A stretch of 24,000 nucleotides of DNA from Balneola sp. EhC07 (GTDB lineage Bacteria > Bacteroidota > Rhodothermia > Balneolales > Balneolaceae), in assembly GCF_001650905.1 (NCBI RefSeq), contig NZ_LXYG01000015.1:13232-37231 (forward strand), in the 5' to 3' direction. The notes beneath the pieces were generated by a model. It did not search any database, was not told the DNA's origin, and worked only from the letters and a program-made list of their open reading frames with translations. Positions 8,654 through 24,000 of the stretch are shown piece by piece (the stretch's first letter is position 1; each line of letters begins with the position of its first letter). Both the position numbers and the translations under genes were made by a program.

Positions 8654-8681
8654 AGCTCTGATGAAAATCAGGGCTTTTTTT
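8654..8681. terminator. Strong hairpin terminator shared by convergent pdhC (+) and the MotB-like gene (-)
   Basis: 9-bp stem agctctgat (8654-8662) / atcagggct (8667-8675, one G-U pair on the + transcript), GAAA tetraloop, T7 tail to 8681. A4 lies on the other side, so weaker function on the minus strand is possible. The stop codon of the minus-strand gene (8680-8682) abuts it. Confidence 0.8.
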
Positions 8682-10413
8682 ATATCCGTTCATTCAGATA
8701 CATAACAGGAGATAATTCTGAACTATCACGATCGAGAATTGTATAAAGTTCGTTTATTTCATCCCAATCTGAAAACGGTCTTGTTAGCAAATAATAACGT
8801 CCGTTGCTAAAGGTCCTGATACTACTTTGTACATTCATTTCACTTCTAAGTCGTTCGGAAAGTTGATCTACTTCCTGTTTAGAAGAAAAAGAACCCAATT
8901 GTATCTGGTAAGTAAACGTATATTCTGAGACAGTAGAGGGGTCATACTTTATAAAAGCATCTTTAAGTATTTCGATATTCTGTATAGCCTCTAATCTTTG
9001 TAAGGCTGTTGAAATATCGTTTATAGAAGCAGTTAGTACTGTATATGCCTGAAGAGATTTTTCTTCTACAACTGCTTCAATATTGTATTCCTGAGCAAGG
9101 GTTTCTTTAAATGATAAAGCTCCTTGTTCATTTTGAAAGAAAGCCAGTTGAATTTGATATTTAAGAGCCTGAGGCCGTTCCTTTCCATTGTTATAGCATT
9201 GTTGAACAAAACCTGTTATTTGGCTTTTTCCCAGTTTCTCTTCGATAGTACTTTGCAAAGCCATAGTTTCAGAAAAGGAAGTACTACTGGCCGTTCTGGT
9301 TGAGAACAAGGAGTTATTATACATTATCTCAAATTCGTAACCGGTTTTTTGTTCCGTTTCTTTGGAAAAAGCTAAGCTGTTAAAAAAGGATTCAAAGCCT
9401 CCGGCCTGAACTGAATACCTGCAACCGTTTTCAAAATTTCCGGTGTTTACGTTTCTGATTTCCGCTTTTGAAACAGGAACAGTTGGGGTAGAGGTAGGTG
9501 CAGAGATTTGTACAGGGGGCTCTTCTGTTTCTTCAGCAATAGCCTCTTCATTCGATTCAGCTTGTACATCTGTTCTTGCTAAATCATCAGAACTATTTAC
9601 TGCATCTGATTCTTCCGGTACTTCAGCCTCAGCATTAGTCGATTCATCATTTGATCCCAATTCAGGCTCGGAGGATTCCTGATCAGTAGAAACAGAATCT
9701 GCTTTTGCCATTTGTTCAGGGCTTGAATAAAATAATCTGAGAACAACTCTTCTGTTCTTATCTTTACTGGCAGGATAAGGATTGCCCTGTTCATCAAATT
9801 CAACTAAAGGTCGGGAGTCAGCATAACCGGATGCTTTTAAACGTTCCTGAGCAATTCCCATTTCACTGAAATACTTTACAATATTAGATGCTCTTGAGGT
9901 AGATAACTCCCAATTCGAATCAAAGTTAGCGGAAGAAATAGGAACATTATCTGTGTGGCCTTCAACGTCTATTTCAAAATCGTTATAGGATATGATCCTG
10001 AAAGCTGCCAAAACACGGTTAAGGATTTCTGATGCTTCGTTTTCTAAAGTAGCGCTTCCTGAGCTGTATAGATCATCACTTTTGAATCTAATGCGTACAT
10101 CATTTAGTTCTCTGAATATCTCAAGCTTACCTTGTTCAATTTCTGGTGCCAGCAATCCTTCAAGTTCTTCTTTAATGTTTTCAATCGGTGTAGTGATAAA
10201 CTCGGTTTCATTCAAAGAAGATTTGAATAAATCAGAAACAGAAAAGGGCTCTCCATCATTTAAATCTGAGAAAGAAAGTAAAATGACCAAAAAACCAAGA
10301 AGAATGGTAATAATATCAAGATAACTTACCTGCCAACTGTCGTCATCTTCACTTTCAATTTCCTGCTTAGGATACAGTGAATTCTTTGTATTATTTGACT
10401 GATCTAAACTCAA
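8680..10413 (-). CDS. MotB-like stator protein with OmpA-like peptidoglycan-binding domain, acidic linker and three C-terminal SPOR-like repeats
   Basis: 577 aa. N-terminal MotB signature SWQVSYLDIITILLGFLVILLSF with a conserved Asp in the single TM (Asp33, codon 10315-10317; counterpart of E. coli MotB Asp32). OmpA-like core EGHTDNVPI...NWELSTSRASNIVKYF...GYADSRPL...NRRVVLRL (aa about 100-228). Asp/Glu/Ser-rich linker (aa about 232-315). Three repeats of the SPOR pattern (YSVQAGGFESFFNSLAF..., YQIQLAFFQNEQGALSFKETL..., YQIQLGSFSSKQEVDQLSERL...). Confidence 0.8.
   Translation of the reverse strand: MSLDQSNNTKNSLYPKQEIESEDDDSWQVSYLDIITILLGFLVILLSFSDLNDGEPFSVSDLFKSSLNETEFITTPIENIKEELEGLLAPEIEQGKLEIFRELNDVRIRFKSDDLYSSGSATLENEASEILNRVLAAFRIISYNDFEIDVEGHTDNVPISSANFDSNWELSTSRASNIVKYFSEMGIAQERLKASGYADSRPLVEFDEQGNPYPASKDKNRRVVLRLFYSSPEQMAKADSVSTDQESSEPELGSNDESTNAEAEVPEESDAVNSSDDLARTDVQAESNEEAIAEETEEPPVQISAPTSTPTVPVSKAEIRNVNTGNFENGCRYSVQAGGFESFFNSLAFSKETEQKTGYEFEIMYNNSLFSTRTASSTSFSETMALQSTIEEKLGKSQITGFVQQCYNNGKERPQALKYQIQLAFFQNEQGALSFKETLAQEYNIEAVVEEKSLQAYTVLTASINDISTALQRLEAIQNIEILKDAFIKYDPSTVSEYTFTYQIQLGSFSSKQEVDQLSERLRSEMNVQSSIRTFSNGRYYLLTRPFSDWDEINELYTILDRDSSELSPVMYLNERI
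8683..9423 (-). repeat. Three tandem SPOR-like protein repeats inside the MotB-like CDS
   Basis: Protein-level repeats start near aa 331, 417 and 500. Each begins [YR]Y[SQ][VI]Q[AL]G/A.F... followed by an amphipathic helix and a second beta hairpin, as in SPOR (sporulation-related repeat) domains. Diverged at DNA level. Confidence 0.55.
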
Positions 10414-10424
10414 TTTCCGCTACC

Positions 10425-11222
10425 CTAAAATTGTTGACTTGTTCTATGCATATGAGCTTTGAGTTTGTCGTAGATCTGAAGCGAAGATTTTTGCTGTTGA
10501 ATCAACAGAATTCCTTCCAAAATCAGTTTTTCTCTGAAAAATTGAAGAGAAGCAATATTATTCATCTTTTTTGCCATTGGAATAAAGATGAAATTCCCAA
10601 TTATGATACCATAAAGAGTGGTCATAAGTGCAGCTGCAAGTCCTGTTAATAAAGAATCCATTTCATTAAAACCGGACAGAATAACGATAAGTCCAAATAG
10701 TGTTCCCAGCATACCGAAGACGGGTGCTGTTTTCCCCATACTTGCAATTATTTGATTGATCTGCTGTTGTCGTGTAAATGTTTCCTGAATATTTATTTCG
10801 GCTAACTCACGAAGATCTTCTGTTGAATAATTGGTATCTAAAATTGAAAAGAGATACCCTTCAAAACGATTTCCATACTCCTCACTTAATTCAGAAACAG
10901 CTTTAATTTTATTGATCCGAATTCTTTTTTGCCACTCTAAGATTTTTTCAATGTCTGTTTCAAGTAACTGATCATCTATATTGCTTTGAGAAAAAAGCCT
11001 TGTACTTTCTCGTAGTGCTCTAATGACTTTCTTAAAGGGATAGCTAATGAATACACTTGCTGATATACCTCCAAATACTATTGCAAGACTTGGAAGGTTA
11101 AGAAACTCATATTTTGATGGAATCATATTGTATTGAGCGAACCCAACCACAAGTAGAGCTCCCCATACTAAAATTGCTAAGGAAACTAAGAAACAAAAAA
11201 TGTTTAAAAATGATGTGCGCAT
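10425..11222 (-). CDS. MotA/PomA-type stator channel protein (MotA_ExbB family, 4-TM flagellar-stator architecture)
   Basis: 265 aa. TM1-TM2 pair, then an approximately 100-aa charged cytoplasmic loop. TM3 APVFGMLGTLFGLIVIL and TM4 LMTTLYGIIIGNFIFIPMAKK keep the conserved prolines. MotA-type C-terminal tail REKLILEGILLIQQQKSSLQIYDKL (compare the MotA consensus EGIL.IQ.G.NP). 11 nt upstream of the MotB-like gene. Confidence 0.85.
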   Translation of the reverse strand: MRTSFLNIFCFLVSLAILVWGALLVVGFAQYNMIPSKYEFLNLPSLAIVFGGISASVFISYPFKKVIRALRESTRLFSQSNIDDQLLETDIEKILEWQKRIRINKIKAVSELSEEYGNRFEGYLFSILDTNYSTEDLRELAEINIQETFTRQQQINQIIASMGKTAPVFGMLGTLFGLIVILSGFNEMDSLLTGLAAALMTTLYGIIIGNFIFIPMAKKMNNIASLQFFREKLILEGILLIQQQKSSLQIYDKLKAHMHRTSQQF

Positions 11223-11257
11223 GTTTTAGTTATGGTTTAATAATTCTTTCATTGTTT

Positions 11258-11737
11258 TCATTCTATTAAGCCTTGTCTCTTTAACTCATCGATTATAGCA
11301 GGAGAGGGGGGTATGGGTAAGTTCTCATCCATTTCGAGAGCTCTTCTCCAAAAAGCCACGAAGTTCTCAGTAGAACCCAATCCCAAATAGATGCTCCCTT
11401 TCAAAGCAAGCAGATCCGCAGTTTCCTTTACCTGTAAAGCACGGTTAATTAAAAATAGAGCGTCCTGATACTCTCCACTATAAAATTTCTGTTGAGAGAG
11501 AATATAAAGCGTGGTAATCCTGTTGGCTTTCGTTTGATAGTCTTTATGAAGTTCTTCTTTATATACCTGCATCAATGAATCTCTTCGGGCCTTTTCAAGA
11601 TCTATTTCCTCAGGATCGTTTGTATCAGAACTCTCCGTTTGAGTTAAAGGACTTTCATTTTGATCTGATTCAACGGGGCCATTAACCGATGTACTTTTAG
11701 TACTTCTGCAAGAAAACAGAAACGATATCCACATCAT
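11258..11737 (-). CDS. TPR-repeat lipoprotein (putative)
   Basis: 159 aa. Short signal with a lipobox-like FLFS/C (Cys10). Ser/Thr/Asp/Glu-rich tether. C-terminal TPR module (FYSGEYQDALFLINRALQVKETADLLALKGSIYLGLG...WRRALEMD). That module is paralogous to the C-terminus of the 993-aa usher-like protein. Confidence 0.6.
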   Translation of the reverse strand: MMWISFLFSCRSTKSTSVNGPVESDQNESPLTQTESSDTNDPEEIDLEKARRDSLMQVYKEELHKDYQTKANRITTLYILSQQKFYSGEYQDALFLINRALQVKETADLLALKGSIYLGLGSTENFVAFWRRALEMDENLPIPPSPAIIDELKRQGLIE

Positions 11738-11774
11738 AGAAATGCAGATAAAGGTTGCATTCGATATGTATTGC

Positions 11775-13601
11775 TTATTCTTGATCTGCTTTGCTTAGTT
11801 TTAACGATTTTCTAAGAGAACTGACCAATTTCTTTTTGGCCTCTGCATTAATTTGATGTTCACCGTTTATAGATTCAAGCTCAAGGCGAATTAATTGTTG
11901 CTCGCGTTTTGGCCTTCCATTTAAAATTTTATCTATAGATGCTGTTTCAAGCCCAATTAATGCTTCCAGTAATGTGGAAGTGTCTAGTTCTTCAACACCA
12001 TTTTTGACTACTTCGTCTTCTAATTCAGGAATCTGGTCTATAGTAAAGAATTCTTTTTCTAATATTATACCTACTTGTGAGCCTGTAGATTTCAACTGCT
12101 CGATATATCTTCGCTGTTCGTCTACAGGAAGATTTTCAAGAATTGGTAAAATATTTTCAACACCAAAATCCTGCTCATGTACATTGTCTCTTACTAAGAT
12201 TGCTTTTTCAAACAATCCGCTGGAAATTTTACTCTGTTCTTTATAGGAGAGCGTATGCAGAGTAGACATTTTAAGCATAATTTCTGCGGCTCTGGATCTT
12301 TCAAACGTATTTAAGATAGAAGCGGCTTTATCCTCAGGTAAGTAATCAATTATGAGGGCTGCACTTACATTGTTTTCAGTTTTTATAAGCTCAGTTAACA
12401 GATCATCAGATAGGTGAGTCAGAAACTTGAACAGCCCAAGCTTAGCATGTTTTTTTTGTGATTTTTCATCGGTGCTTTCATCCTTAATAATAGAATTAAA
12501 GTACTTGGCAGCTCTGTATTTTTCATCAATAGACATTGGGGGTAGATTTCGTATAGCTACCTTAATAGTCTCTAGTTTTTCTTCGTCTATATGATTTTGG
12601 AGTAATTTAAGAGAGCTGGAATCAATAGATGAAACAACTTCAGCAACATTTGAAGGTCCATTTTTTTCGTCACTATCAATCCAGAATTCGAAAACCAAAG
12701 AAACCTCCTGTGGATATTTGAAAAAGTTTTCTGAAACTAATTCGAACTCAGAAACTATATCCCGGGAATGTTCTTTAGAACTTCCGAAGAAGGAAAGATT
12801 ACTATCGGGGTTTAAACTTCCTTCCACCGTAATGTCACTTTTAAGATTATCTCTTTGAGACTGGAAATCAGATTTATCTCTGGAGTTTCTAAATATTCCG
12901 TATCCAAATAATCCAAGTAAAAATACTGCAAGTAAAATTATTTCAACCAAATAGTCTTTGAAAGAACTTAAGAGGGGTTTAGGCTCCGGCTCTTCGGTAT
13001 TAGTTATTACAACAGCAGGTTCAAAATCCGGATCAGGGATAGCAAGTTGAGTAATATTTATTACATCACCTCTGGTGAAATCAATTTTAGCAGCAAAACC
13101 AGTTACACGTCTCATAAAGTCTAAATCAGTATCAGACAGGGAGGTATCGGCATATATATTAACAGCAAGGCTATTAAGCTGTAAAGTCTTATAAGTAGTT
13201 TGGTTTGTAGTATTTTGAGGAGTTGTTTGTACAGTTTGGGAATTTTGGAGGTTTTCATCCGGAAGAAAAGGGAGGCCGGGCAAAAAGCTTTGTGAATTTC
13301 TTGTTACAGTTTGAGTACCGGGTGTTTGTAAAGTTTCTTCTATAAATTCAGCTTCAATATTAACGTCTACAAAAAATTTCTTTCTGTCAAAGTGATTAGA
13401 AAGTATTAGAATAATCTGTGAATCGTAAGCCTGTTCAAGTGAAGCAATTTGTAGCTGTCCGGATTGAGAGATGACACCGGAAGATTGAGCTCTTGCTGAT
13501 AAGCCTGAAATGCATAAGACTATTAAGAGAGAGAACAGATATCTCAGCATTAAATACTTCCTCAAATTTTTTTTAACCAACGTATTCATTTTACATATCA
13601 T
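11775..13601 (-). CDS. Bitopic inner-membrane protein: periplasmic FliF/SctJ-like ring-building-motif region fused to cytoplasmic FliG-like (middle + C-terminal torque) domains
   Basis: 608 aa. N-terminal signal/anchor (LRYLFSLLIVLCISGLSARA/Q). Periplasmic aa about 40-215 with two helix-strand modules resembling RBMs (LEQAYDSQIILILSNHFDRKKFFVDVNIEAEF; LNSLAVNIYADTSLSDTDLDFMRRVTGFAAKIDFTRGDVINITQL). TM aa 217-237 (LVEIILLAVFLLGLFGYGIF). Cytoplasmic ARM-like repeats: FliG_M/MgtE_N-like TENNVSAALIIDYLPEDKAASILNTFERSRAAEIMLKMSTL, and FliG_C-like EFFTIDQIPELEDEVVKNGVEELDTSTLLEALIGLETASIDKILNGRPKREQQLIRLELES...AEAKKKLVSSLRK. The latter aligns to the remembered FliG_C consensus MFVFEDI..LDDR.IQ.VLREVD..DLA.ALKGAS.E...KI..NMSKRAA..L.E.LE...P.....EEAQ..I....R.L. 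Met5 (13589) or Met18 are alternative starts. Confidence 0.65.
   Translation of the reverse strand: MICKMNTLVKKNLRKYLMLRYLFSLLIVLCISGLSARAQSSGVISQSGQLQIASLEQAYDSQIILILSNHFDRKKFFVDVNIEAEFIEETLQTPGTQTVTRNSQSFLPGLPFLPDENLQNSQTVQTTPQNTTNQTTYKTLQLNSLAVNIYADTSLSDTDLDFMRRVTGFAAKIDFTRGDVINITQLAIPDPDFEPAVVITNTEEPEPKPLLSSFKDYLVEIILLAVFLLGLFGYGIFRNSRDKSDFQSQRDNLKSDITVEGSLNPDSNLSFFGSSKEHSRDIVSEFELVSENFFKYPQEVSLVFEFWIDSDEKNGPSNVAEVVSSIDSSSLKLLQNHIDEEKLETIKVAIRNLPPMSIDEKYRAAKYFNSIIKDESTDEKSQKKHAKLGLFKFLTHLSDDLLTELIKTENNVSAALIIDYLPEDKAASILNTFERSRAAEIMLKMSTLHTLSYKEQSKISSGLFEKAILVRDNVHEQDFGVENILPILENLPVDEQRRYIEQLKSTGSQVGIILEKEFFTIDQIPELEDEVVKNGVEELDTSTLLEALIGLETASIDKILNGRPKREQQLIRLELESINGEHQINAEAKKKLVSSLRKSLKLSKADQE
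11802..12053 (-). other. FliG C-terminal (torque-helix) like domain within the 608-aa protein
   Basis: aa 517-600. Conserved positions versus the remembered FliG_C consensus: F-x-F/T-x-D, E-[VL]-D-T, L-x-x-A-L-x-G, K-I, K-R-x-x-x-L-x-x-x-E-L-E. The KR...ELE segment occupies the position of the charged torque helix that contacts MotA in flagella. Confidence 0.55.
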
Positions 13602-13618
13602 AGGAACTTTTTATACTC

Positions 13619-16600
13619 CTAGTTTCCTGGTTGAGTTCTTATTAATTGGTCTAATACTTCAATATCCGGAATAAAGATATCAGGATTAAATTCTAATGCT
13701 GTATCCCAGTTTTTTTGAGCTTCTTTTTTATCACCTTGTAAGTAATACAGACTTCCTTTTAAAGCATAACCCTGAGCGGTTTCAAATAGGCTCAAAGACT
13801 CGTTGACTAATGTCAGAGCCCTGTCAATATCTCTGTTATAAAAAGCAGTTTGTGCCTGGATAATCAATCTTAATGTCCGATCAATATTTTCATCATATTC
13901 TTCCTGAAGTTGAATTATTTCATCCGATTGGCTGATTTCTGCTAATATGCTTGTATCAGGTACTATTTCAATGTTACGGATGTCAAAGTCTTTTGGAACA
14001 AGCACTATGCTAAGCCCTTCTATGAAATCTCCTTCCGGTATAGACCTTACCTCAAAGTTAGGTAAACTATCGCGTATTTTTGAATCTAAAATATCTAACT
14101 GACTCTGATCAATGCTTAGTTTATACTTTCCGGGAGGTATCTCAAAAGAATAAAAACTCCCATCTGAAAATGTCCTGATCTCTTTAAAAAAGTCACTATC
14201 AATTGAAGAAATTATAACTTTAAGGCCGGCTATTCCGGATTTTCTTCCATTTTCAAAAAATCGTTCAACTGTTCCTTCAACAACACCGGACATATAAAAT
14301 GGAATTTCCACTTTCTTGAATCGATTTGGATCGGTAATCAAACCAAAATTTTCAAACTCCGGTACTAGCATAGGATTTCTTATAGCTCCTTTATTCAATT
14401 CCATATTGTAGTAAAAATAAGGCTGCATCTGCGTGAAATAATGGACTCCATTTTTGGAAAAGTTCATTGCACCTGATCTTGTGACACGCAGAGCATTTTC
14501 ATTTATCAGGTCATCTTCTTCATCAAAAGTTCCGTTATTATTGTTATCAACGAAAAGTTTAACGGCAGTACCTGATCTGCCAACTTGTTCTCTACTGGTA
14601 AATAAGAAATTATTATAATTTGTATCGTAACCTATAGACCCTCTGAGGTTTTGCGTTAAATTGTAATTGTCTCGAATAGAACTAAAGTTAGAACTGGACC
14701 TTACCTTGTTGAAATCGATACTAAAGCTAAATCTGACAGAGTTAAACTTATTAAAGAAATTTCTACCTACTGAAAATTGAAATCTTCCATTTTTGAAAAT
14801 GCTTCTTGAGATAAATAATTGTGCAGATTCAATTTCTTTTTGAATAGGCAAATAACGCATTTGAGCTCTCAAAAAAGTTCCTTTTAAGTAGGAGGGGATA
14901 TTTCGATTACGCGAAATTGTATATGTAACTGAGTTTTCAATTGCAGCTAAACTTGTTGGAGAAAGAATATCAAACCGCCCAAAATATCTATCGATATAAC
15001 CTATTCGGACATTAAATTTATTAAATCGAGAATTTGCATCCGCTCTGAACGTTGTAATACTGGATGATTCACCAAAACGAGAAAAGGCAGAAACTCTTAC
15101 ATTAAGAGGGGTAGAGCCGAATGAAAAAGGGTAGAACAGAGTGCTGCTTATTCGTTTATCATCATTAGAAGGATTATAAATACTAAATCCGGATGAGTAA
15201 TTTATAAAATCAACATTAAAACTTGCTGAATTAGGATAAACAGCATTTAATGTAGATCGATAGAAAGCATCGGTTGCTCCTTCAAGAGTAAAAATATAAT
15301 TCGTGGATATTCTGGAAGAAAGAGACGAAATAAAAGTTGGCAAAGTAGTATGAAATCCTTCATAATATTCAATACCAGCCTTAGCAGTAAGCCAATCAGT
15401 CAATCCATATGATCCCGATCCTTGTGCTGTTAGTACTCGGTTGGACGTGCCTATCAAAGGATTATCTAGTTCACCGAGGTTTACTATGTAGTTAAACTCG
15501 CCGGCCGGCTGGAAGTTAAAAGGAACCTGAATACGATTTGACCTTTCTATGATTTGACCGGTAGGACCATAAATTCTTAGATCTAGTTGAGTTGCACCAT
15601 AAGTAAGCGGGGCTAAGAACCTGTAGTCACCGGCTTGATCAGAAATTTGAAAATCTATTAGTGCATTATTAAGGTAGAGTTCCACTTCTGATTGAGGAAT
15701 AGTAGTGCCCTGAACCTCAAATTCATCAAATAGTCGTCTAGGCTCTACCGGTTCATTTGAAAAACGAACTCCGCTGTATGGGCTTTTATTTACACCATCT
15801 GTAAGAGTTTGACCAATGGTCAATTTTGTAATTATATTTTGATCTCTAAAGTATCTTCTCCACCTAAGATTATTAGTGGAAAAGTTTGAAAAGTTTTCAG
15901 AAAAGCTCCCAAATAACGAGCCCTGAAGATCTCCTCCATAAAGTTGTAAACCAATATTACTATTATAGTTGTATATATTAACTTGATCAGATAAGTTTGC
16001 AGAAAGGTTATAGTCGACAAATCCACCATCCAAGAAAGGTTTCTTCCTCTTAAATTTAAGGTCATAATTATTTTCAGAGAAACGGTTGTTGTCGGCAACT
16101 CTTCGTTTTTGGTTTCTTAATACTTTCTGTATTACGGGGAGTTCTTTCTGTGTAATCAAACTAAGTCTTAGATTCCCGAAGTCAACCATAAAATCCAACT
16201 GAAATATATCATAGAAAAATTCAGGCTTTAAATAGAAATCTATTTCTTTGATTAAAAAATCCTCTGAAGAAATTTGATGAGTTTCGTTTCCGAATCTGAT
16301 AAAATTGTCCTGGAGATTTATGGAATATGGAGTTTGTTCTGAAGAGAAATTTCCCGATATAATCAAACCATCCTGATTATTTTCTATACCAAGGAGATTG
16401 AAGATTTCATTTACAGGGAGGTAAAAATTGTCATCTTTATAATAAGAGATAACAACAGTATTTATTATTCCGCGATGCCTGAATTCAAGATATACTTCGG
16501 ATTCGTCAGAAGTATTCTGAGCGGAAGCTTCAGGTTGTGTTAGAAGTACACAAAAGAGAAAGAAGCATATCTTTACAGTTATTTTGAACCAATCTCTCAA
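13619..16600 (-). CDS. Usher-like outer-membrane assembly protein with CarboxypepD_reg-like domain and C-terminal TPR module
   Basis: 993 aa. Signal peptide (FCVLLTQPEASA/Q). N-terminal domain resembling usher NTD (YLEFRHRGIINTVVISYYKDDNFYLPVNEIFNLLGIE). Long beta-strand-rich, aromatic/Asn/Ser-rich barrel-like region. Plug-like segment FEVQGTTIPQSEVELYLNNALIDFQISDQAGDYRFLAPLTYGATQLDLRIYGPTGQIIE (compare the usher pattern V.G...p.a.V.v..NG..i....v.aG.F.i.dl....G.l.v.v....G). Ig/CarboxypepD_reg-like GVVEGTVERFFENGRKSGIAGLKVIISS...FSDGSFYSFEIPPGKYKLSI. TPR at aa about 905-993. Sits next to the chaperone-like and pilin-like genes. Confidence 0.55.
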   Translation of the reverse strand: MRDWFKITVKICFFLFCVLLTQPEASAQNTSDESEVYLEFRHRGIINTVVISYYKDDNFYLPVNEIFNLLGIENNQDGLIISGNFSSEQTPYSINLQDNFIRFGNETHQISSEDFLIKEIDFYLKPEFFYDIFQLDFMVDFGNLRLSLITQKELPVIQKVLRNQKRRVADNNRFSENNYDLKFKRKKPFLDGGFVDYNLSANLSDQVNIYNYNSNIGLQLYGGDLQGSLFGSFSENFSNFSTNNLRWRRYFRDQNIITKLTIGQTLTDGVNKSPYSGVRFSNEPVEPRRLFDEFEVQGTTIPQSEVELYLNNALIDFQISDQAGDYRFLAPLTYGATQLDLRIYGPTGQIIERSNRIQVPFNFQPAGEFNYIVNLGELDNPLIGTSNRVLTAQGSGSYGLTDWLTAKAGIEYYEGFHTTLPTFISSLSSRISTNYIFTLEGATDAFYRSTLNAVYPNSASFNVDFINYSSGFSIYNPSNDDKRISSTLFYPFSFGSTPLNVRVSAFSRFGESSSITTFRADANSRFNKFNVRIGYIDRYFGRFDILSPTSLAAIENSVTYTISRNRNIPSYLKGTFLRAQMRYLPIQKEIESAQLFISRSIFKNGRFQFSVGRNFFNKFNSVRFSFSIDFNKVRSSSNFSSIRDNYNLTQNLRGSIGYDTNYNNFLFTSREQVGRSGTAVKLFVDNNNNGTFDEEDDLINENALRVTRSGAMNFSKNGVHYFTQMQPYFYYNMELNKGAIRNPMLVPEFENFGLITDPNRFKKVEIPFYMSGVVEGTVERFFENGRKSGIAGLKVIISSIDSDFFKEIRTFSDGSFYSFEIPPGKYKLSIDQSQLDILDSKIRDSLPNFEVRSIPEGDFIEGLSIVLVPKDFDIRNIEIVPDTSILAEISQSDEIIQLQEEYDENIDRTLRLIIQAQTAFYNRDIDRALTLVNESLSLFETAQGYALKGSLYYLQGDKKEAQKNWDTALEFNPDIFIPDIEVLDQLIRTQPGN
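13661..13864 (-). other. TPR module at the usher-like C-terminus, paralogous to the lipoprotein module at 11309-11506
   Basis: Hand alignment of usher-like aa 914-978 with lipoprotein aa 79-143: 25 identical residues over 65 ungapped positions (FY...AL.L.N..L...ETA...ALKGS.Y...G........W..ALE......IP). Similarity continues to both C-termini after a 1-residue shift (D.L.R). Confidence 0.7.
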
Positions 16601-17470: not shown

Positions 17471-17542
17471 GACTGCTTTTTAGTTGTAAATGATGCAGTA
17501 AAGTAAAGAATTAAAATCAAATATATTTTGGATAGTTTTAAT

Positions 17543-17574
17543 AAAAAAAAAGTCCCGCTTTTAACGAGACTTTT
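17543..17574 (-). terminator. Intrinsic terminator after the 183-aa pilin-like gene (intra-cluster attenuator)
   Basis: Minus-strand RNA AAAAGUCUCG-UUAAAA-GCGGGACUUUUUUUUU: stem GUCUCG/CGGGAC (one G-U pair) extendable by A-U pairs, followed by a U9 tract. Lies 22 nt after the stop at 17596 and about 70 nt before the chaperone-like start. Confidence 0.65.
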
Positions 17575-17595
17575 AATTCGTTTAAGACTAATCTA

Positions 17596-18147
17596 TCACT
17601 GATAGTTAACAGTGAAAGTTAAATCTCCGGAAGCACCTGCAGTACCACTGTCAGAAGTATAAGTTCCGGCAGCTTGACCTGAAAGTGCACCTAAGTTACC
17701 ACCGATGTATACAAATAATGCACCGCCAGCAGAAGTTTCAGTAGCTGCACCTGCAGTTGCTTTAGTTACATCACTTGAACTTGCAATTGCATCTGTACTA
17801 TTCGCAGAAACATCAGGAGTGAAAGTCATTGAATTAGTTCCGTCACTTAATGTAACAGTTGCTTGATCCCAGTCAATAACTAACTGAGTTGTGTTAGCAG
17901 CAGAAATGGAGAATTTTCCAAAAGTTGCGCCACCACCAACATCAGCAGTGTTAGTACCTTGAGGATCAAGAACAGGAGAACCTGTATCCTGAATGTTTCC
18001 GAAACTTACATCAGAAACGAAGGTAAGTGCAATGTCAGCAAGAATAACAGCAGATGTGTTAATATCTTGTGTTTCCTGTGCATTAGCTACAGGATTAGCA
18101 AAAGCAACAAGAGCTAAAGCAGTAATGATATATTTTAAATTTTTCAT
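17596..18147 (-). CDS. DUF4402/SCPU-like secreted pilin candidate (probable major subunit)
   Basis: 183 aa. Signal peptide MKNLKYIITALALVAFANPVANA/Q. Thr/Ser/Ala/Gly-rich all-beta composition. Motifs SFGNI about 25 aa after the cleavage site and C-terminal GTYTSDSGTAGASGDLTFTVNYQ, matching my memory of DUF4402 proteins (...G.Y.g...vtV.Y-x end). Own upstream 120-nt gap and downstream terminator. Confidence 0.7.
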   Translation of the reverse strand: MKNLKYIITALALVAFANPVANAQETQDINTSAVILADIALTFVSDVSFGNIQDTGSPVLDPQGTNTADVGGGATFGKFSISAANTTQLVIDWDQATVTLSDGTNSMTFTPDVSANSTDAIASSSDVTKATAGAATETSAGGALFVYIGGNLGALSGQAAGTYTSDSGTAGASGDLTFTVNYQ

Positions 18148-18186
18148 AGTTTTTTAATTTGTGTGAAGTAGAGTTGTATTCTTTAT

Positions 18187-18217
18187 TCAAGCTAACGACT
18201 ATCTGATTTGTTTCAAA
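18187..18217 (-). promoter_or_regulatory. Candidate Bacteroidota-style promoter upstream of the 183-aa pilin-like gene
   Basis: Minus strand TTTG (18217-18214) - N19 - TAGCTTGA (18194-18187). This is a partial match to the Bacteroidetes sigma-A consensus TTTG-N19-21-TAnnTTTG (last two positions mismatch). It lies in the 120-nt intergenic gap. Confidence 0.25.
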
Positions 18218-18267
18218 TTAGAGTGTTTTAATGAAGATTTCTTAATGTTTCTAAATAAAGAGTGTGG

Positions 18268-18801
18268 TTATTCATAAGTAACACTTACAACCACTTCTGC
18301 AGTGTATATTCCATTAGGGATGTTTCCTACATCAATACCTCCATACACATAAAGGAACATTTCCTGCCATACATCTCCGGAGTTGGAAAGATTTTCATCT
18401 CCGTCATAGATTGATATTAATCCTTGATTATTAGATAAAGGCACAGCATTGTTGATATTATTTACTCCTGAATTATTATAAGAGGCTTCTAATTGCAAAG
18501 GGATACGTTCTGTTACTGCAGGATTAATATTAATGAGCTCTTCAGGAACCAACATGTTAATTTGTATATTTTGAGTATAATAAGCTCTTATAGAAAACAC
18601 TCCCATTCTTACATCGCCAATCCGAACTTCTCTGTACCCCGAATTTGAAACCACGTTTCCAAAATCGAGTGATTGTTCAACGGTCACATTTAATTCAGGT
18701 TCAATTTTAAGGCGTAGATTGATAAACTGGCTATTAGCTGGTATAAGGTCAAGCGTTACCCAAATAAAGCTTATTAGCATTATGATCGATGACTTAATCA
18801 T
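18268..18801 (-). CDS. DUF4402-like secreted pilin paralog (minor subunit candidate)
   Basis: 177 aa. N-terminal hydrophobic signal. LDFGNV motif, IPLQLEASYNNSGVNNINN segment (shared with the 216-aa paralog), and C-terminal GIYTAEVVVSVTYE. Its start overlaps the upstream gene stop by 8 nt (ATGATTAA). Confidence 0.6.
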   Translation of the reverse strand: MIKSSIIMLISFIWVTLDLIPANSQFINLRLKIEPELNVTVEQSLDFGNVVSNSGYREVRIGDVRMGVFSIRAYYTQNIQINMLVPEELININPAVTERIPLQLEASYNNSGVNNINNAVPLSNNQGLISIYDGDENLSNSGDVWQEMFLYVYGGIDVGNIPNGIYTAEVVVSVTYE

Positions 18802-19444
18802 AATTTATCGTTACAGAAATACTTGAATTGTAACTGCCTGCGTCAACGTTGCCTATATTAATTGATCCATATATATATAGATATGCAGTTTCATTGAATA
18901 TGCTCGGATCATATCCTTCATAAACAGGGGTTGGGGGAGGGCCTGGAGGACCATTAGTTCTTTGTAATATCTGAAACTGAGCACTTGCTACATTAGATAA
19001 CACCGTGATGTTAACTGATTCATTAACATTGTTATTACCCCGATTAGCATAAGCAGCTTCTAAGGTAAAAGGGATTCTGCAAGAGGGGTCCGTTTCACAT
19101 CCAAGATCTCCATTTAGCAAAAGATAGTTATCAGCTGTAATGTCTACTAACACATCCAGATATTTAACACCCTCGAGGGTCAATATTTTTGCATTAACTA
19201 AATCGATAGACGCCGGGCCTTGATTTTGTATCAACGTGCCGAATTCTAATTCTTCAGATGGATTAAATTCTGATAATGAAATGCTATATGCACTACTATA
19301 CTGACCAAAGTCAATTTCCTGAGCAGAAACAGATGTAGAGCTACTTATACTTGTAATTAAAAAGACAATGCAACAAAAAACAGAATATTTAAGATATGCC
19401 GGTGATTTTTGATAAGAAGCTATTTTTATTAAAATGCTATTCAT
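18794..19444 (-). CDS. DUF4402-like secreted pilin paralog with Cys pair and Pro-rich insertion
   Basis: 216 aa. Signal ending SSTSVSA/QE. LEFGTL motif, IPFTLEAAYANRGNNNVNE, and C-terminal GSYNSSISVTINYD. Unique GCETDPSC and NGPPGPPPTP insertions. Confidence 0.6.
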   Translation of the reverse strand: MNSILIKIASYQKSPAYLKYSVFCCIVFLITSISSSTSVSAQEIDFGQYSSAYSISLSEFNPSEELEFGTLIQNQGPASIDLVNAKILTLEGVKYLDVLVDITADNYLLLNGDLGCETDPSCRIPFTLEAAYANRGNNNVNESVNITVLSNVASAQFQILQRTNGPPGPPPTPVYEGYDPSIFNETAYLYIYGSINIGNVDAGSYNSSISVTINYD

Positions 19445-19484
19445 TTAATTAATGTCTACGATCATTAAAATTACAATGCCAACA

Positions 19485-19988
19485 TCATATGTAATCAATC
19501 TCTATGGTAAAGTCTCCTTCGTAATTACCTGGAACTGCATTTGTAATATTAATTCTTCCACCAATCCAAAAGTAATATCGGCCCTCAAGACTAAATTGAA
19601 TAGATCTGTTCTCTGTATCTAAAAGTTCTGATGTAGATTGGTTTTCAATAGAGTTGCCGGAAATTTCATACATAAAAGTTAATGTTGATGTACCATCAAC
19701 TTGAGTTAATACAATTTCCGGAAGATATGTGAGTCTGAAAGCTGCTTCGGGATTACCGGTAGCAATCATAAAGCCCGCATTAATACTGTTGATCGGATTT
19801 ACGTATAGTTCTTGTTGTCCGGGCTGTACATTTCCGAACGTCATAGACTGAACTGTAATTAAATCAATACTGGAAACTATATTAGCGCCTACCTTAATAT
19901 CTCCAGAAACCTGAATATTTTGTTCTTGAGCAAATAGAAAATGATTTGTACTAACTAAAATAATGAGGGATACGACTAATTTTTTCAT
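19485..19988 (-). CDS. DUF4402-like secreted pilin paralog (most divergent)
   Basis: Signal MKKLVVSLIILVSTNHFLFA/Q. Met at 19988 is preferred; the longest ORF starts at 20003 with MQLFSMKK. MTFGNV motif and C-terminal PGNYEGDFTIEIDYI. Confidence 0.6.
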   Translation of the reverse strand: MKKLVVSLIILVSTNHFLFAQEQNIQVSGDIKVGANIVSSIDLITVQSMTFGNVQPGQQELYVNPINSINAGFMIATGNPEAAFRLTYLPEIVLTQVDGTSTLTFMYEISGNSIENQSTSELLDTENRSIQFSLEGRYYFWIGGRINITNAVPGNYEGDFTIEIDYI

Positions 19989-20039
19989 GCTGAATAATTG
20001 CATATAAAATTAATAATTACCAGTTAATTCTTTTTAATA

Positions 20040-20049
20040 AGAACGTTCT
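20040..20049. promoter_or_regulatory. Perfect 10-bp palindrome AGAACGTTCT in the gap between the adhesin gene and the first pilin-like gene
   Basis: agaacgttct is read directly at 20040-20049. It is adjacent to an AU-rich 11-bp hairpin (about 20054-20082) with no U-tail. Function unknown. Confidence 0.2.
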
Positions 20050-20089
20050 AATGTTTTGAATAATTTCGTAAATCATTCAAAAGTCGAAA

Positions 20090-23000
20090 TTATTTTATAA
20101 GAGTAAATCGCTCAGTGTAAATTTGAGAATCTGTTTGAAGACGATAGAAGTAAATCCCACTTGCTAAGTGCTCAGCTCTATAGTTTATGTTATAAGTGCC
20201 TGCAGTCATTCGTTTATTTAACAACGTGGAAATTTTCCTTCCAAGAATATCGTATACAACCAAGCTTACTTCAGAATCTACATCCAAGCCAAACGGAATT
20301 GTAGTTGTTGGATTGAAGGGGTTTGGATAGTTTTGTGATAAGAAAGATTTTTCCGGGATATTAAGTTCGATTTCTTCTGTAGTAATTTTCAGAGTGAACC
20401 GCGCATCATCGGCTTTTTTTCGGATAACTTTTTGTTTTGTATATGGATTAGCAACTTTGGCTTTGCTTTTGGTTGAGTGAAAGAATGTATATTCTTCCTG
20501 ATCAATTAGATCTATTTCCTTGTCAGTTTCATTGTCAATCAATGAGATCAACCATTCATCAGGGATATTATCAAAGTTTATACCTCTAATTTTGAAATCG
20601 CCTGAAATCGGAAACCCTTCTTTATACCCGTTTATATTAACAGGAAGCAAATACCTGTTTGTAAACTCCAATGGAAGATTGTTTATGACTAACGGAGTTC
20701 CGTCATCTAACAAACTAAAGATTTCTAAACGATTTGAAGTAAAAGGAAGCAGTTCAAATGCATCAAAATTATCTTTTGCTTCAGATGCATTTTTAGTAAA
20801 CATAAAGCTTACATCTTTTTTTAATCCGTTTGAGGTAAGTTCCAAAGTAAGTAATGGAATATCATCTGTTTGTTCTGTTCTTATTTCTTTTCTGAGAAAT
20901 GCCCCACCTGTTGTTTTAGCATCAGTAGTAACTTTTAAAACAGGGCTTGAAGCATTTGCTTTAATCCAGAATCCCTGGAATGGAGCAATTAAACCACTTC
21001 CGATTGTTCCTGTAGTTCCATTCCAGGTTAGATACTCTCCATTACCACCATTAGCTGCCGGATCCCAAACATAAATAGTGTTTTCGATATTCGTTTTTGT
21101 CCAGCTTGGAGAATCATCCCAGTCAATGGTGGCACCAAAAGGATTACCCACTAAATTCCAGCCAGTATCTGCGTTAGCGGTGTAAGTTACTCCAAAGTCT
21201 ACTTCACCAGCTGTTCCGTTAAATTCTTGTCCACTAACATCTAAAGTATCCGGAAGAGGGTTGTTATATCTGGCATCTGCAGCAATATCTCCAAAGAAAA
21301 ATACAAAAATACCCTGACCTTCTACTAAAGGGTCAGTAGCATTTCCTGGAGCTCTGTATCGTTGATTATCAGTGCCTTCAAAGCTTTCTAAATAAGTGAG
21401 TACATTGGGTTGTAAACTGTCAAGAGCCGCATTTCCAAGTGTTGAGCCTGTAAAGCCCTGAGTTAATGTCCCGTCCAAAAGATCACCAAATGTAGAAGAA
21501 ACAGGAGAGGAGAGAATACGCCATCCTCTTACACCTGATATTTTTCTTTGAAAACGTAAAGTTCCGGTTCCATATCTAATACCTTCCACGACTAGATTCT
21601 TTCCACTTGGTATCAGTAACTCGCCGGATGTCATAATAAGACTGTCATTGATAGCGAGGTTCTCTTCTACAGTTACGCCATTAGCATTATCAATTACAAG
21701 ATTGGTGTATGCATGAGGGTTAGTAATACTTTGGGCTGAAACCCCGTTCATAACAACTGTTCCAACATTTATAGCACTTACATCCAGAATATCACCTCCA
21801 ACAGTGATGCTGTCAGCATTGGTTCCAAGTACACTTCCGCCAGATAAGTTGCCTGTAATTGTGAAATTTATACCTCCGGAAATGGTTAAAGAAGCACCGG
21901 TTTCCATAGAAACGGATGAGACACTTGCTCCTGTTACATCTACAACAGGTAGTTCATTTCCTCCCCCCGGTGTAACAGGTATAAAAACAACGGAAGACGG
22001 TCCGGGAACAGTACCAACATTCCAATTGCCTGTATCTTCCCAGTCAGAGGCTAAACTTGCAGAACCTAACTGGCTTTCCCAGATATGAGTAAAAGCAGCA
22101 AATTCTACAGTAGCATTGTCAGTAATTGACACAGCATTTACTGTTCCGGTTATAGTAGCAGTCTCGGCTACCATAGTTGAAGTTAAAGTATCAGAATAGC
22201 TTCCGTCACTATTATCAATTATAGAACCACTTGTACTGGCAAGAGTACCTGTCGTAGTTGATAAGGTTATGGCATCTCCACCTGTAGTTATATTATTACC
22301 AAATTCGTCTTTCAGATTAACAGTAATAATAGATGTACTTGTCCCATCATTTAGAATAACAGTTGGTGAAGCGGTAATTAAAGATGTTGTTTCTGATGCA
22401 GCTCCGGCACTAACCAAAAAACTGTTACTCGTCCCGAATTCAGACCCAGCAGAATTTGTAGCAGTGATTGTACATGATCCTACACTGGAAATGCTCACAC
22501 TTGTAGAAGACAATACTCCGGAAGAGAAATTGGCAGAAGTTCCTTGTCCGGTATCCATCGTACAACTGGATGAAATAACTACAGTGCCATTAAAAGTAGT
22601 AACGGTGGTTGAGGTGCCATCAATAGCAGTAATTTTAATACTAAAAGTTTGGCCGGCAGTTTTAGAACTGATATTCCCTGAAGGAATACGTTCTATCAGA
22701 AAAGACGTAAGCGTACCAGCATTTACTATATCAAATGTAGAACTTGTATCTGAATTTAATCCTGTGCTGGTCGATACAAGTCTTTTTGTACCAATAGCAT
22801 CGATAGCCAAAGTGTCAAATTCTGATATACCTAATGCATTAGTTTCTATTGATGTGGATTGGTTCAGATTACCACTGCTTTCCGGCGAAAGTGCAATAGA
22901 AATATCTACTCCTGATTGTTCAATGCTGTTCCCAAATTGGTCTACCAGCTGTACTCTAACAGCAGGAGTAATAGAGCTATCTATATTAGTAGTTGAAGGC

Positions 23001-24000
23001 TGCTGAACAAATATTAAACTATCGGAGACTCCCGGAATCATATTAATGATTCCATAGTTTGTTGCTCCACCTTGCCCGGTAGTACCAGTGTTGGTAATGT
23101 TTCCGGTATTTGGGATAGTCCCTGTTGTTGGCCGTATTTCGAGTCCTGTAAATTCAAGTTGTCCGGGATTGGTGGATGAAGCCGCGTCTATTGTAAAAGT
23201 TACAGCAGATGAGCTAACACTGGTAAATGAAGCGTCTAATTCTGTAGATCCCCCAAATGCGGGAGATTCAGTAATACCAATGGTTCCACCTGTATTCCAC
23301 TCGAAACCAGTTGGGGCAGTAAGTACAAATGTTCCACTTGAAGTATACTCACCTATAAAACCTTCTTGTACAAATGGACCTGTCAAAGAAGTAAAAGTCG
23401 TGTTGGCATCATCAGCAGAAATAGTGGCTCCTCCTGTTGCCGGAGTTAACTTACGAATTGCCTGATCATATTTATCGGCGAGATAGTCCTCAATGCTTTC
23501 CCGCTCGGTTTGAGAAATACTACGGCTGTAAAAAATAAACTCTGCGATTTCGCCATCCCAACTATTATTTCCGGAATCTTTTCCTCCTTTTCCCAATAAG
23601 GCAGTAGTGGCAGTTGTAATCGATCCGGATGGAGGAGGATCAGCTGCAGAACTGGGATTATTCAAAATTCCATCAACATATAGATCGTAAGTTGTACCAC
23701 TTTCCCATTGCAAACTGATTATTTGAGCACCTGTAGTTTGGATATCAGAAAAGCTTTCTAATTGGTTATCAGGATCGTTTCCAAGAATACCTGTTTTTAT
23801 TACATCGCTGAAAGATCCGCCCCCGTTTGCTCCTGAAGCATCATATCTGATAGTTAAAATTTCATCAGCTCCTGAAGGAGAGTCCGCAATAAAAAGTCCT
23901 TTATCTGAATTTGTAACATCAGATTTATAAACTATAAACAAGCTGAATTCAGTGTTACTGTTGATGTAATTTGTTTGACCATCACTATCAAGAAAATGAT
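20090..24000 (-). CDS. Giant surface protein (5'-truncated by window edge): LamG-like + Ig-like (Big) repeats + beta-helix-like region + T9SS C-terminal sorting domain
   Basis: The reading frame stays open from 23941 to the window end (upstream codons translate ...HFLDSDGQTNYINSNTEFS-L-FIVYK with no stop), so the TTG at 23941 is not the start. LamG/ConA-like motif WDGEIAEFIFYSRSISQTERESIEDYL. Ig-like repeats (e.g. ITASPTVILNDGTSTSIITVNLKDEFGNNITTGGDAITLSTTTGTL, invasin/Big_1-like). C-terminal NYPNPFNPTTTIPFGLDVDSEVSLVVYDILGRKISTL...AGTYNINY...LASGIYFYRLQTDSQIYTERFTLIK, a type-A T9SS sorting tail. Confidence 0.85.
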   Translation of the reverse strand, partial: HFLDSDGQTNYINSNTEFSLFIVYKSDVTNSDKGLFIADSPSGADEILTIRYDASGANGGGSFSDVIKTGILGNDPDNQLESFSDIQTTGAQIISLQWESGTTYDLYVDGILNNPSSAADPPPSGSITTATTALLGKGGKDSGNNSWDGEIAEFIFYSRSISQTERESIEDYLADKYDQAIRKLTPATGGATISADDANTTFTSLTGPFVQEGFIGEYTSSGTFVLTAPTGFEWNTGGTIGITESPAFGGSTELDASFTSVSSSAVTFTIDAASSTNPGQLEFTGLEIRPTTGTIPNTGNITNTGTTGQGGATNYGIINMIPGVSDSLIFVQQPSTTNIDSSITPAVRVQLVDQFGNSIEQSGVDISIALSPESSGNLNQSTSIETNALGISEFDTLAIDAIGTKRLVSTSTGLNSDTSSTFDIVNAGTLTSFLIERIPSGNISSKTAGQTFSIKITAIDGTSTTVTTFNGTVVISSSCTMDTGQGTSANFSSGVLSSTSVSISSVGSCTITATNSAGSEFGTSNSFLVSAGAASETTSLITASPTVILNDGTSTSIITVNLKDEFGNNITTGGDAITLSTTTGTLASTSGSIIDNSDGSYSDTLTSTMVAETATITGTVNAVSITDNATVEFAAFTHIWESQLGSASLASDWEDTGNWNVGTVPGPSSVVFIPVTPGGGNELPVVDVTGASVSSVSMETGASLTISGGINFTITGNLSGGSVLGTNADSITVGGDILDVSAINVGTVVMNGVSAQSITNPHAYTNLVIDNANGVTVEENLAINDSLIMTSGELLIPSGKNLVVEGIRYGTGTLRFQRKISGVRGWRILSSPVSSTFGDLLDGTLTQGFTGSTLGNAALDSLQPNVLTYLESFEGTDNQRYRAPGNATDPLVEGQGIFVFFFGDIAADARYNNPLPDTLDVSGQEFNGTAGEVDFGVTYTANADTGWNLVGNPFGATIDWDDSPSWTKTNIENTIYVWDPAANGGNGEYLTWNGTTGTIGSGLIAPFQGFWIKANASSPVLKVTTDAKTTGGAFLRKEIRTEQTDDIPLLTLELTSNGLKKDVSFMFTKNASEAKDNFDAFELLPFTSNRLEIFSLLDDGTPLVINNLPLEFTNRYLLPVNINGYKEGFPISGDFKIRGINFDNIPDEWLISLIDNETDKEIDLIDQEEYTFFHSTKSKAKVANPYTKQKVIRKKADDARFTLKITTEEIELNIPEKSFLSQNYPNPFNPTTTIPFGLDVDSEVSLVVYDILGRKISTLLNKRMTAGTYNINYRAEHLASGIYFYRLQTDSQIYTERFTLIK
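20093..20332 (-). other. T9SS type-A C-terminal sorting domain (Por_Secre_tail-like)
   Basis: The last approximately 80 aa match the well-known pattern NYPNPFNP.T.I.F.L......L.VYD.LGR.v..L......aG.Y......l.sGiYFYrL......... K. Confidence 0.85.

Follow-up and report, generated by a model that had tools for sequence, protein, structure and literature searches.

A conserved Balneolaceae gene cluster joins a putative DUF4402 chaperone-usher pilus locus to a flagellar-type rotor-stator module

Chaperone-usher pili are the textbook example of energy-independent assembly at the outer membrane, and their classical assembly pathway uses no inner-membrane energy source. Torque generation between FliG and MotA is, to our knowledge, found only in flagella. 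Candidates for both kinds of machinery are encoded side by side in a stretch of 24,000 nucleotides from Balneola sp. EhC07 (contig NZ_LXYG01000015.1, positions 13,232 to 37,231; referred to here as the window). A minus-strand cluster in the window encodes an adhesin with a type IX secretion system (T9SS) tail, four small secreted DUF4402 or DUF4402-like proteins (D1 to D4), a PapD-like chaperone, an outer-membrane usher, a FliG-like rotor protein, a tetratricopeptide repeat (TPR) lipoprotein, and the stator proteins MotA and MotB. The order of these genes is conserved across Balneolaceae, and the adjacency of usher and FliG-like genes extends to distant lineages. We put at about 0.45 the probability that the cluster encodes one envelope-spanning machine, a DUF4402 chaperone-usher fiber whose usher is mechanically coupled to a flagellar-type rotor-stator. 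That the pilus and motor modules are functionally coupled in one way or another we regard as likely.

On the pilus side, the cluster resembles chaperone-usher pili (archaic or sigma; e.g., Csu of Acinetobacter, with SCPU-type subunits) in its predicted two-domain PapD-like chaperone, its predicted 24-strand FimD/PapC-like usher with a plug, its several small secreted paralogs as candidate subunits, and the terminator that follows the candidate major subunit. It is unlike them in that the usher bears a C-terminal TPR tail (or SPOR domains in a motor-less variant), the subunits are DUF4402 proteins for which no solved relative was found by sequence, a T9SS adhesin heads the cluster, and the putative operon runs on into a rotor-stator module.

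On the motor side, the cluster resembles the core of the flagellar motor. The stator has a plug, a channel Asp, and an OmpA-like anchor; FliG N, M, and C domains are present, with part of the torque charges; and a borderline FliF RBM3-like domain and a transmembrane (TM) helix lie directly upstream of FliG. Unlike in flagella, FliF and FliG are here one polypeptide, with FliF cut down to a single ring-building motif. Engineered FliF-FliG fusions are reported to assemble rings still (PMC6079021). The cluster further differs in that MotB has SPOR domains, the FliM-binding motif of FliG is degenerate, and the neighbors are pilus genes. No other flagellar gene (FliM, FliN, type III export, rod, hook, or filament) was found in the window or in the related loci of about 20 kb that were examined. 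This agrees with the initial annotation, which had seen no canonical export, rod, or hook genes in the window, and the motor genes sit with no flagellar regulon in any of the loci seen.

The ExbBD-TonB, TolQRA-Pal-CpoB, AglRQS-Glt, and GldLM-T9SS systems also combine an ion-driven inner-membrane motor, a periplasmic link, and an outer-membrane effector, and Tol-Pal likewise involves a periplasmic TPR protein (CpoB). However, the A subunit of the cluster groups with flagellar stators, the effector would be an usher, and the motor partner would be contacted in the cytoplasm via a FliG domain rather than within the membrane. No homolog of TonB or TolA is present in the cluster. A recent survey of MotAB relatives names Exb, Tol, Agl, and Zor as the nonflagellar systems, with no mention of FliG as a partner (PMC12505986). 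A further related system is a stand-alone five-gene module from Elusimicrobia and metagenomic assemblies, which shares the RBM3/FliG fusion with its PGLP and RGD motifs, a signature TPR protein, MotA, and MotB, but lacks usher, chaperone, and pilins, encodes a secreted protein of about 359 amino acids (aa) instead, and has a MotB without SPOR domains. Our literature search, outside of which most subscription journals lay, returned nothing on DUF4402, nothing on MotAB combined with a nonflagellar or membrane-anchored FliG, and nothing on ushers associated with stators, and the source annotations read “FliG C-terminal domain-containing protein,” “molecular chaperone,” or “hypothetical.” On present evidence, the cluster falls outside the definitions of both the flagellar and the classical chaperone-usher families and combines parts of the two in an undescribed arrangement.

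The FliG-like protein has a signal peptide (ending AQ/S), a conserved periplasmic domain of about 175 aa, a single TM helix, and cytoplasmic FliG N, M, and C domains. Its Pfam matches to FliG_M (6e-9, 36.4 bits) and FliG_C (6.5e-8, 33.3 bits) are both above cut-off, residues 393 to 601 are collinear with the middle and C-terminal domains of Thermotoga maritima FliG (E 2.4e-18), and residues 312 to 378 match FliG_N weakly (E 0.0019). Residues R566 and E574, which correspond to R281 and D289 in the torque helix of Escherichia coli FliG, are invariant across the family, and the FliM-binding EHPQR motif reads ENNVS. For the periplasmic domain, a profile was built from 15 diverse family members. 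FliF was its top match in the PDB (E 0.0018), covering nearly the whole domain, and five of the six best matches were FliF. Pfam YscJ_FliF_C is matched by 13 of the 15 members (best 5.7e-5), although every one of these matches is below cut-off, and hhalign comparisons with one FliF gave a probability of 20% for the periplasmic profile and 6.5% for the less diverse profile of the full protein. The motif LS..(D/E)(L/I)..(L/M)......G.....RGD.(I/V).(I/V)...P is spaced as it is in real FliF before its second TM helix. Of the FliF-like rotor proposed in the initial annotation, only an RBM3-like domain next to the membrane finds support: out of the features of a full MS-ring protein (two TM helices and RBM1 to RBM3), the only ones present are the RBM3-like segment and a TM helix. 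We interpret the protein as a minimal FliF(RBM3)-TM-FliG fusion of natural origin, with a FliF part that is borderline.

MotB has Pfam matches to MotB_plug (6.6e-7), OmpA (1.2e-14), and SPOR (1.1e-9, in two stretches), arranged as a TM helix with the channel Asp (SYLDIIT), a plug, an OmpA-like peptidoglycan-binding domain, an acidic linker, and a SPOR tail. MotA matches Pfam MotA_ExbB (1.9e-18) and aligns over its full length with solved flagellar MotA/PomA structures (E 1e-20 to 1e-23), whereas its match to TolQ is confined to TM3-4 (E 2e-3; NCBIfam tolQ, 1.6e-3). Its best NCBIfam matches are MotP, MotA, and PomA, all far below the equivalog cut-offs, and both MotA prolines are present. The pair therefore has the features of a MotA/MotB-type stator, with a four-TM A subunit containing a large cytoplasmic loop and a B subunit containing the Asp, the plug, and a peptidoglycan-binding domain, and by these comparisons MotA is a divergent stator of the flagellar type rather than of the ExbB/TolQ type. 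Zorya or another defense system was rejected as an identity for these genes: PADLOC gives only generic ZorB/MotB similarity for MotB and none for MotA or the other proteins. The lipobox Cys of the TPR lipoprotein is invariant in 18 orthologs, including those of distant lineages, and the protein has no match in NCBIfam. A BLASTP comparison with the usher's TPR tail gives 34% identity (E 2e-13), indicating that the two are paralogs.

The identities of the chaperone and usher come from predicted structures, since sequence profiles are nearly silent on both. For the chaperone, Pfam, NCBIfam, and a PDB profile search of the alignment gave no useful match. Its AlphaFold (AF2) model (predicted local distance difference test [pLDDT] score, 87.5) has two beta-sandwich domains, and the Foldseek matches in the PDB include CfaA, EcpB, FimC, PapD, Caf1M, CsuC, and others at E values of about 1e-8 and a probability of 1.0, with a WxLIP two-Ig protein as the single best match. 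These models support a PapD-fold chaperone. The usher likewise had no match in NCBIfam and nothing useful in a PDB profile search of its alignment. In its AF2 model (pLDDT, 74.8), DSSP delineates an N-terminal domain (34 to 150), 6 plus 18 barrel strands, a six-strand insert (289 to 359) at the place of the plug, sandwiches (700 to 870), and the TPR tail. FimD/PapC structures take every one of the first 19 places among the Foldseek matches in the PDB (E 1e-25 to 2e-9), ahead of any other fold class (3e-6 at best), which supports a FimD/PapC-fold usher with a predicted 24-strand barrel and a plug after strand 6. Both proteins had been put forward as candidates in the initial annotation, and the structural comparisons bear this out.

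The four small paralogs are DUF4402-like. D4 is the sole one whose match to Pfam DUF4402 is above cut-off (28.9 bits versus 25.2). D1, which is rich in Ala, Gly, Thr, and Ser, falls just below it (1e-4, 23.3 bits), and 5 of 14 D1 orthologs match the family. The matches of D2 (E 0.053, profile positions 2 to 129 of 129) and D3 (E 0.075, full length) are also subthreshold. A C-terminal G-x-Y...Y motif is common to D3, D1, and D4, and hhalign links D4 and D1 as paralogs (probability, 97.4%; E 1e-11). Profile searches with the DUF4402 alignments found no relative in the PDB, and NCBIfam was also without a match. The pilins, chaperone, and usher carry Sec signal peptides. The adhesin contains the Ig-like domain Invasin_D3 (7e-19) and, at residues 1205 to 1279, a C-terminal Por_Secre_tail sorting domain (E 6.7e-9, 36.4 bits versus a 27-bit cut-off), as expected of T9SS cargo. 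Its frame has no stop from 23941 to the window edge and its homologs are 1739 to 2522 aa long, indicating that it is a single gene cut by the window. The initial annotation had counted twelve genes in the cluster where there are 11; its domain calls for MotA, MotB-OmpA-SPOR, TPR, FliG, DUF4402, and the T9SS tail all correspond to Pfam matches, those of D1, D2, and D3 to DUF4402 being below cut-off. In related loci, adhesin homologs carry DUF2341 and Laminin_G_3 upstream of Invasin_D3.

When one genome per GTDB species was scanned, the FliG-like protein turned up in 35 species, every one a member of Balneolaceae, and the order D4-D3-D2-(D1)-chaperone-usher-FliG-like-TPR-MotA-MotB is kept in their loci. 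The full block from D4 to MotB is present in 32 of the 35, and the remaining three (L001, L023, and L033) end at contig ends; L001 (OZ244952.1) is a 97% match to the window locus, and database proteins that are identical or 97 to 99% identical to those of this marine Balneola are labeled Balneola sp. MAG. Within the family, the identity of the FliG-like protein drops to 36 to 40% with the order intact. In 33 loci D2 and D3 are syntenic and D4 is conserved, BLAST picked up D1 in no more than about half of the 35, and the adhesin with Invasin_D3 and Por_Secre_tail is conserved at the head of the loci. Co-directionality of the genes alone is unremarkable; it is the conservation of their order that exceeds chance.

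Several features of these loci vary. At least two allele types of D1 exist, and their distribution is at odds with the species tree: D1 is 73 to 97% identical to that of the window in L002, L006, L011, L025, L030, and L031 and about 30 to 34% identical in others, although the FliG-like protein of L025, L030, and L031 is only about 40% identical despite the close D1. This pattern suggests exchange or diversifying selection of an exposed subunit. Another locus, L011 (OZ254085.1, 3634 to 15002), is a mosaic in which the pilus module is 79 to 93% identical to that of the window, with 50% identity for the FliG-like protein, 51% for MotB, and 82% for MotA, which would reflect recombination at the boundary between usher and motor. 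More distant Balneolaceae loci contain about 3 kb of unassigned genes between the adhesin and DUF4402 genes, which the window cluster is without.

Beyond Balneolaceae, a hidden Markov model search at E<=1e-30 recovered the FliG fusion in 182 clusters at 50% identity, most of them 580 to 750 aa long and matched end to end. Eight distant loci were examined: L045 to L049, an Elusimicrobia locus (GCA_002412545.1; L040/L041), L043, and L044. In five of these eight (L045 to L049, all metagenomic), an usher-TPR gene whose product is 32 to 42% identical to the window usher lies directly upstream of the FliG-like gene, and in L046 and L048 the two genes overlap by 4 nucleotides. L045, L046, L047, and L049 continue with MotA and MotB, whereas the contig of L048 ends after a TPR gene, which is counted among the homologs of the lipoprotein gene. 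A small gene lies between the FliG-like and MotA genes in L047, L049, and L045, of which only that in L047 was shown to encode a homolog of the TPR lipoprotein (E 1e-6); L046 is without the lipoprotein gene. The chaperone is also encoded in L046 and L047 (hhalign E 1e-33), and the small proteins of these two loci showed no demonstrable likeness to DUF4402. The adjacency of usher and FliG-like genes thus persists from 99% to about 20 to 25% identity of the FliG-like protein, and the TPR tail is present on every motor-adjacent usher. The link between pilus and motor genes that the initial annotation drew from one genome therefore extends far beyond it, to 35 Balneolaceae loci and five distant lineages. 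MotB of L045 and L046 is without SPOR domains, and peptidoglycan-binding modules are shuffled among usher, MotB, and FliG-like protein between lineages. An AraC-type response regulator is encoded downstream of MotB in L046 (9755 to 11928, with a histidine kinase) and L049 (4949 to 5743).

The other three distant loci contain the motor module alone, with no usher. The unit is complete in L040/L041 and L044 (FliG fusion, secreted protein of about 359 aa, TPR protein, MotA, and MotB), and in L043 the contig ends after its second gene. The secreted protein has faint similarity, below cut-off, to FlgO (E 0.002) and FlgT_M (E 0.05). The TPR protein of this module in Elusimicrobia shares about 44% identity both with the usher's TPR tail and with the TPR lipoprotein. 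Immediately upstream of the FliG fusion, L040 (9717 to 10001) and L043 (181 to 459) carry a small gene of the MerR family. In L040/L041 (1 to 8767), divergent type IV pilus genes (PilM, prepilin peptidase, pilin, PilC, PilT, and PilB) adjoin the motor module, which may be a coincidence or another link to pili.

The converse arrangement is found in Gracilimonas and Balneola vulgaris DSM 17893. Their usher homologs (1169 to 1549 aa) are 54 to 62% identical over the usher body but have a long SPOR tail in place of the TPR tail. These loci keep the adhesin, DUF4402 genes, and chaperone, and the FliG-like protein, TPR lipoprotein, MotA, and MotB are absent. In B. vulgaris the usher is followed by E2, E1, the alanyl-tRNA synthetase gene, and DUF502, as these flank MotB in the window, so the locus occupies the same chromosomal site. 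The SPOR tail of the motor-less usher (876 to 1167) is collinear with the tail of the window MotB (294 to 577; E 1e-11 and 9e-9; 22% identity). Among the loci compared, the usher carries a TPR tail exactly where a motor is present. By this domain layout, the peptidoglycan anchor is on the usher without a motor and on the stator with one, which is what a torque-generating design requires. Since distant outgroups have an usher-TPR and a motor, the motor-less form looks derived, and it plausibly arose when a deletion joined the usher body and the MotB tail. Because these lineages retain the complete set of pilus genes, fiber assembly probably does not depend on the motor. The initial annotation treated pilus and motor as one unit. 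Their conserved linkage holds, but the pilus occurs alone in Gracilimonas and B. vulgaris and the motor alone in Elusimicrobia and others. Published statements on B. vulgaris conflict: it is described as flagellated and motile (Urios 2006, cited in PMC5167729), whereas a KEGG survey found no flagellar assembly genes in Balneola (PMC9909488), and it holds the motor-less pilus locus. In the motor-less loci, extra small genes, one of them with DUF4900, separate the adhesin from the DUF4402 genes: L037/L038 have three, B. vulgaris has four, and L036 has seven.

In the coupled machine that we propose, MotA5B2 units, anchored to peptidoglycan by their OmpA and SPOR domains and powered by a flux of H+ or Na+, would push the FliG_C torque helix of a ring built via the RBM3-like domain. 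The periplasmic face of this ring would be connected to the usher by the usher's own TPR tail together with its paralog, the TPR lipoprotein, and the motor would turn or cyclically load the base of the usher-fiber assembly. The loss of the motor and retention of the pilus genes in Gracilimonas and B. vulgaris suggest that the motor would move an already assembled fiber (by rotation, sweeping, motility, or detachment) rather than assemble it. We infer an energized or rotary function purely from homology and linkage. Real continuous rotation of the fiber we regard as unlikely, and it is more doubtful still that the fiber is a second, independently assembled kind of rotating surface filament, spun by MotAB stators and a FliF/FliG ring.

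A number of observations weigh against this proposal. Each module occurs alone, so coupling is not obligatory. The canonical RxxGxxxLE charged motif of MotA is not conserved in the alignment with solved stators, and just two of the five classical charges of the FliG torque helix are kept, the other three being lost. The FliF homology is borderline (E 0.0018), as are the Pfam matches from which the DUF4402 proteins are taken as pilins, and ring formation by the FliG-like protein is something that we only infer. We know of no precedent for a beta-barrel usher rotating in the outer membrane. In L045 (799 to 3000) and L046 (5844 to 8267), moreover, a periplasmic LysM domain (E 1.8e-4 and 1.4e-14) forms the N terminus of the FliG-like protein. 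It would bind the supposed rotor to peptidoglycan, and continuous rotation is difficult to square with that. Such a tether would favor, at least in these two lineages, a coupled but nonrotary machine. Here the FliG fusion would move little or not at all and, like TonB, TolA, or GldM, would act as a transducer that turns stator power strokes into conformational work on the usher, such as opening the plug, extruding subunits against a load, or retracting or releasing the fiber. As far as is known, the other outer-membrane processes that MotA/ExbB-family motors power (Ton, Tol, Agl-Glt, and T9SS) all use a periplasm-spanning transducer (overview in PMC12505986), and the TPR tail and TPR lipoprotein could serve as an adaptor. 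However, the motor-less loci keep an intact usher, chaperone, and pilins, so gating or assembly is not intrinsically energy dependent, and a stator of the flagellar rather than ExbB/TolQ type, together with a complete FliG and the ring-building motif of FliF, amounts to a set of rotary parts. We consider this nonrotary alternative somewhat improbable.

The other alternatives separate the motor from the usher. The cluster could hold two unrelated systems, an ordinary chaperone-usher operon and a separate envelope motor with, for example, a maintenance role or, as the SPOR domains hint, a role at the division site. The usher-less five-gene unit of Elusimicrobia, L043, and L044, the existence of the pilus module without a motor, and the separable histories implied by L011 (pilus genes at 79 to 93% identity versus about 50% for the FliG-like protein and MotB) fit such an arrangement. 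It is nevertheless improbable, given that the same-order adjacency persists over the whole range of FliG-like identity, that the usher tail shares homology with the motor module's TPR protein and is present only with the motor, and that the usher and FliG-like genes overlap in L046 and L048; the depth of conservation and the covariation of domains make chance adjacency of the modules unlikely. Alternatively, the motor might serve the T9SS-tailed adhesin rather than the usher fiber, as GldLM moves SprB, an idea prompted by the position of the adhesin at the head of the Balneolaceae loci and by the SprA_N gene near L047. The same adhesin is present in motor-less loci, though, and none was seen upstream of the pilus genes in L046; the conserved direct neighbor of the FliG-like gene is the usher; and T9SS has its own GldLM motor, all of which make this reading very improbable. 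A KEGG survey that reports incomplete flagellar pathways in some Balneolaceae and proposes their gradual loss (PMC9909488) would allow the FliG-like protein, MotA, and MotB to be decaying remnants of a lost flagellar regulon. This is scarcely credible for intact genes conserved across 35 species and accompanied by no other flagellar gene in any locus examined, in which a conserved periplasmic domain and TM helix precede FliG in one polypeptide, an architecture shared by about 180 clusters at 50% identity; conservation and family size exclude it.

A FliG-MotA motor and a chaperone-usher pilus joined genetically in this conserved way would make up an envelope machine of a new class. Debates on the origin of the flagellum lack a rotor-stator pair from outside it, and the pair seen here, with a minimal FliF-FliG fusion and no export apparatus, would supply one; the widespread stand-alone module, if this reading is true, would be a living rotor-stator core without type III secretion that bears on the origin of the flagellar motor. 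The motor-less sister loci and usher-less motor modules are natural controls, and with cultivable relatives among Balneola and Gracilimonas isolates the proposal is directly testable.

The coordinates of the cluster are collected in Table 1. All 11 open reading frames from the window edge down to 8680 are on the minus strand, and the intergenic gaps from 8680 upward are 11, 35, 37, 17, 36, 125, 120, −8, 40, and 86 nucleotides, as the initial annotation had described (gaps of 11 to 125 nucleotides with one 8-nucleotide overlap). It had also placed terminators only after the 183-aa gene and at the distal end. Strong hairpins are found at both places, but weaker minus-strand matches also occur within genes, and the total of 13 terminator-like sites is not above that in shuffled sequences (9.5 +/- 3.8). 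The hairpin after D1 probably serves as an attenuator, fixing how much pilin is made relative to the assembly proteins; it has a counterpart at the equivalent place in L008 but not in L015. The distal hairpin separates the MotB gene from the convergent 2-oxoacid dehydrogenase E2 gene, which belongs to a housekeeping flank on the opposite strand (alanyl-tRNA synthetase and 2-oxoacid dehydrogenase E1 alpha, E1 beta, and E2). The Bacteroidetes-type promoter motif (TTTG...TAnnTTTG) was not enriched and did not occur inside the cluster, and a sigma-70 promoter scan of the window gave matches at chance level only.

Table 1. Features of the minus-strand cluster in the window and of related motor-less loci (positions in the window unless a locus is named)
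Feature	Position	Strand	Description
MotB gene	8680-10413	-	577 aa, stator B subunit
MotA gene	10425-11222	-	265 aa, stator A subunit, MotA/PomA-like
TPR lipoprotein gene	11258-11737	-	159 aa, paralog of usher TPR tail
FliG-like rotor protein gene	11775-13601	-	608 aa, read as FliF-RBM3/TM/FliG fusion
Cytoplasmic FliG N/M/C of FliG-like protein	about 11778-12704	-	Pfam and T. maritima FliG alignment
TM helix of FliG-like protein	about 12888-12953	-	
FliF-RBM3-like periplasmic domain of FliG-like protein	12957-13487	-	profile comparison
Usher gene	13619-16600	-	993 aa, predicted outer-membrane usher
Usher C-terminal TPR tail	13643-13924	-	residues about 893-986; Pfam TPR_2 5e-6; proposed coupling domain
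PapD-like chaperone gene	16637-17470	-	277 aa, periplasmic
D1 gene (DUF4402)	17596-18147	-	183 aa, candidate major fiber subunit
D2 gene (DUF4402-like)	18268-18801	-	177 aa, signal peptide
D3 gene (DUF4402-like)	18794-19444	-	216 aa, signal peptide, 8-nucleotide overlap with D2
D4 gene (DUF4402 pilin-like)	19485-20003	-	172 aa, signal peptide
Adhesin gene	20090->24000	-	5'-truncated by window edge; Invasin_D3 and Por_Secre_tail
Terminator-like hairpin 3' of D1	17574-17548	-	12-bp stem and T9 run
Bidirectional hairpin terminator	8651-8678	both	12-bp stem between A-run and T-run
Extra small genes, motor-less loci	L039 (B. vulgaris) 4688-7438; L036 400-5776; L037 4062-6326		

The G+C content is 33 to 37% over most of the cluster (window positions 10001 to 21000), versus 37 to 41% in the housekeeping flank and 39 to 42% in the adhesin gene. 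Six of eight predicted signal peptides have Gln at or beside the cleavage site after Ala (...AQ), and those of the chaperone and D2 read ...SQ, a pattern that would fit the “Q-rule” of Bacteroidota.

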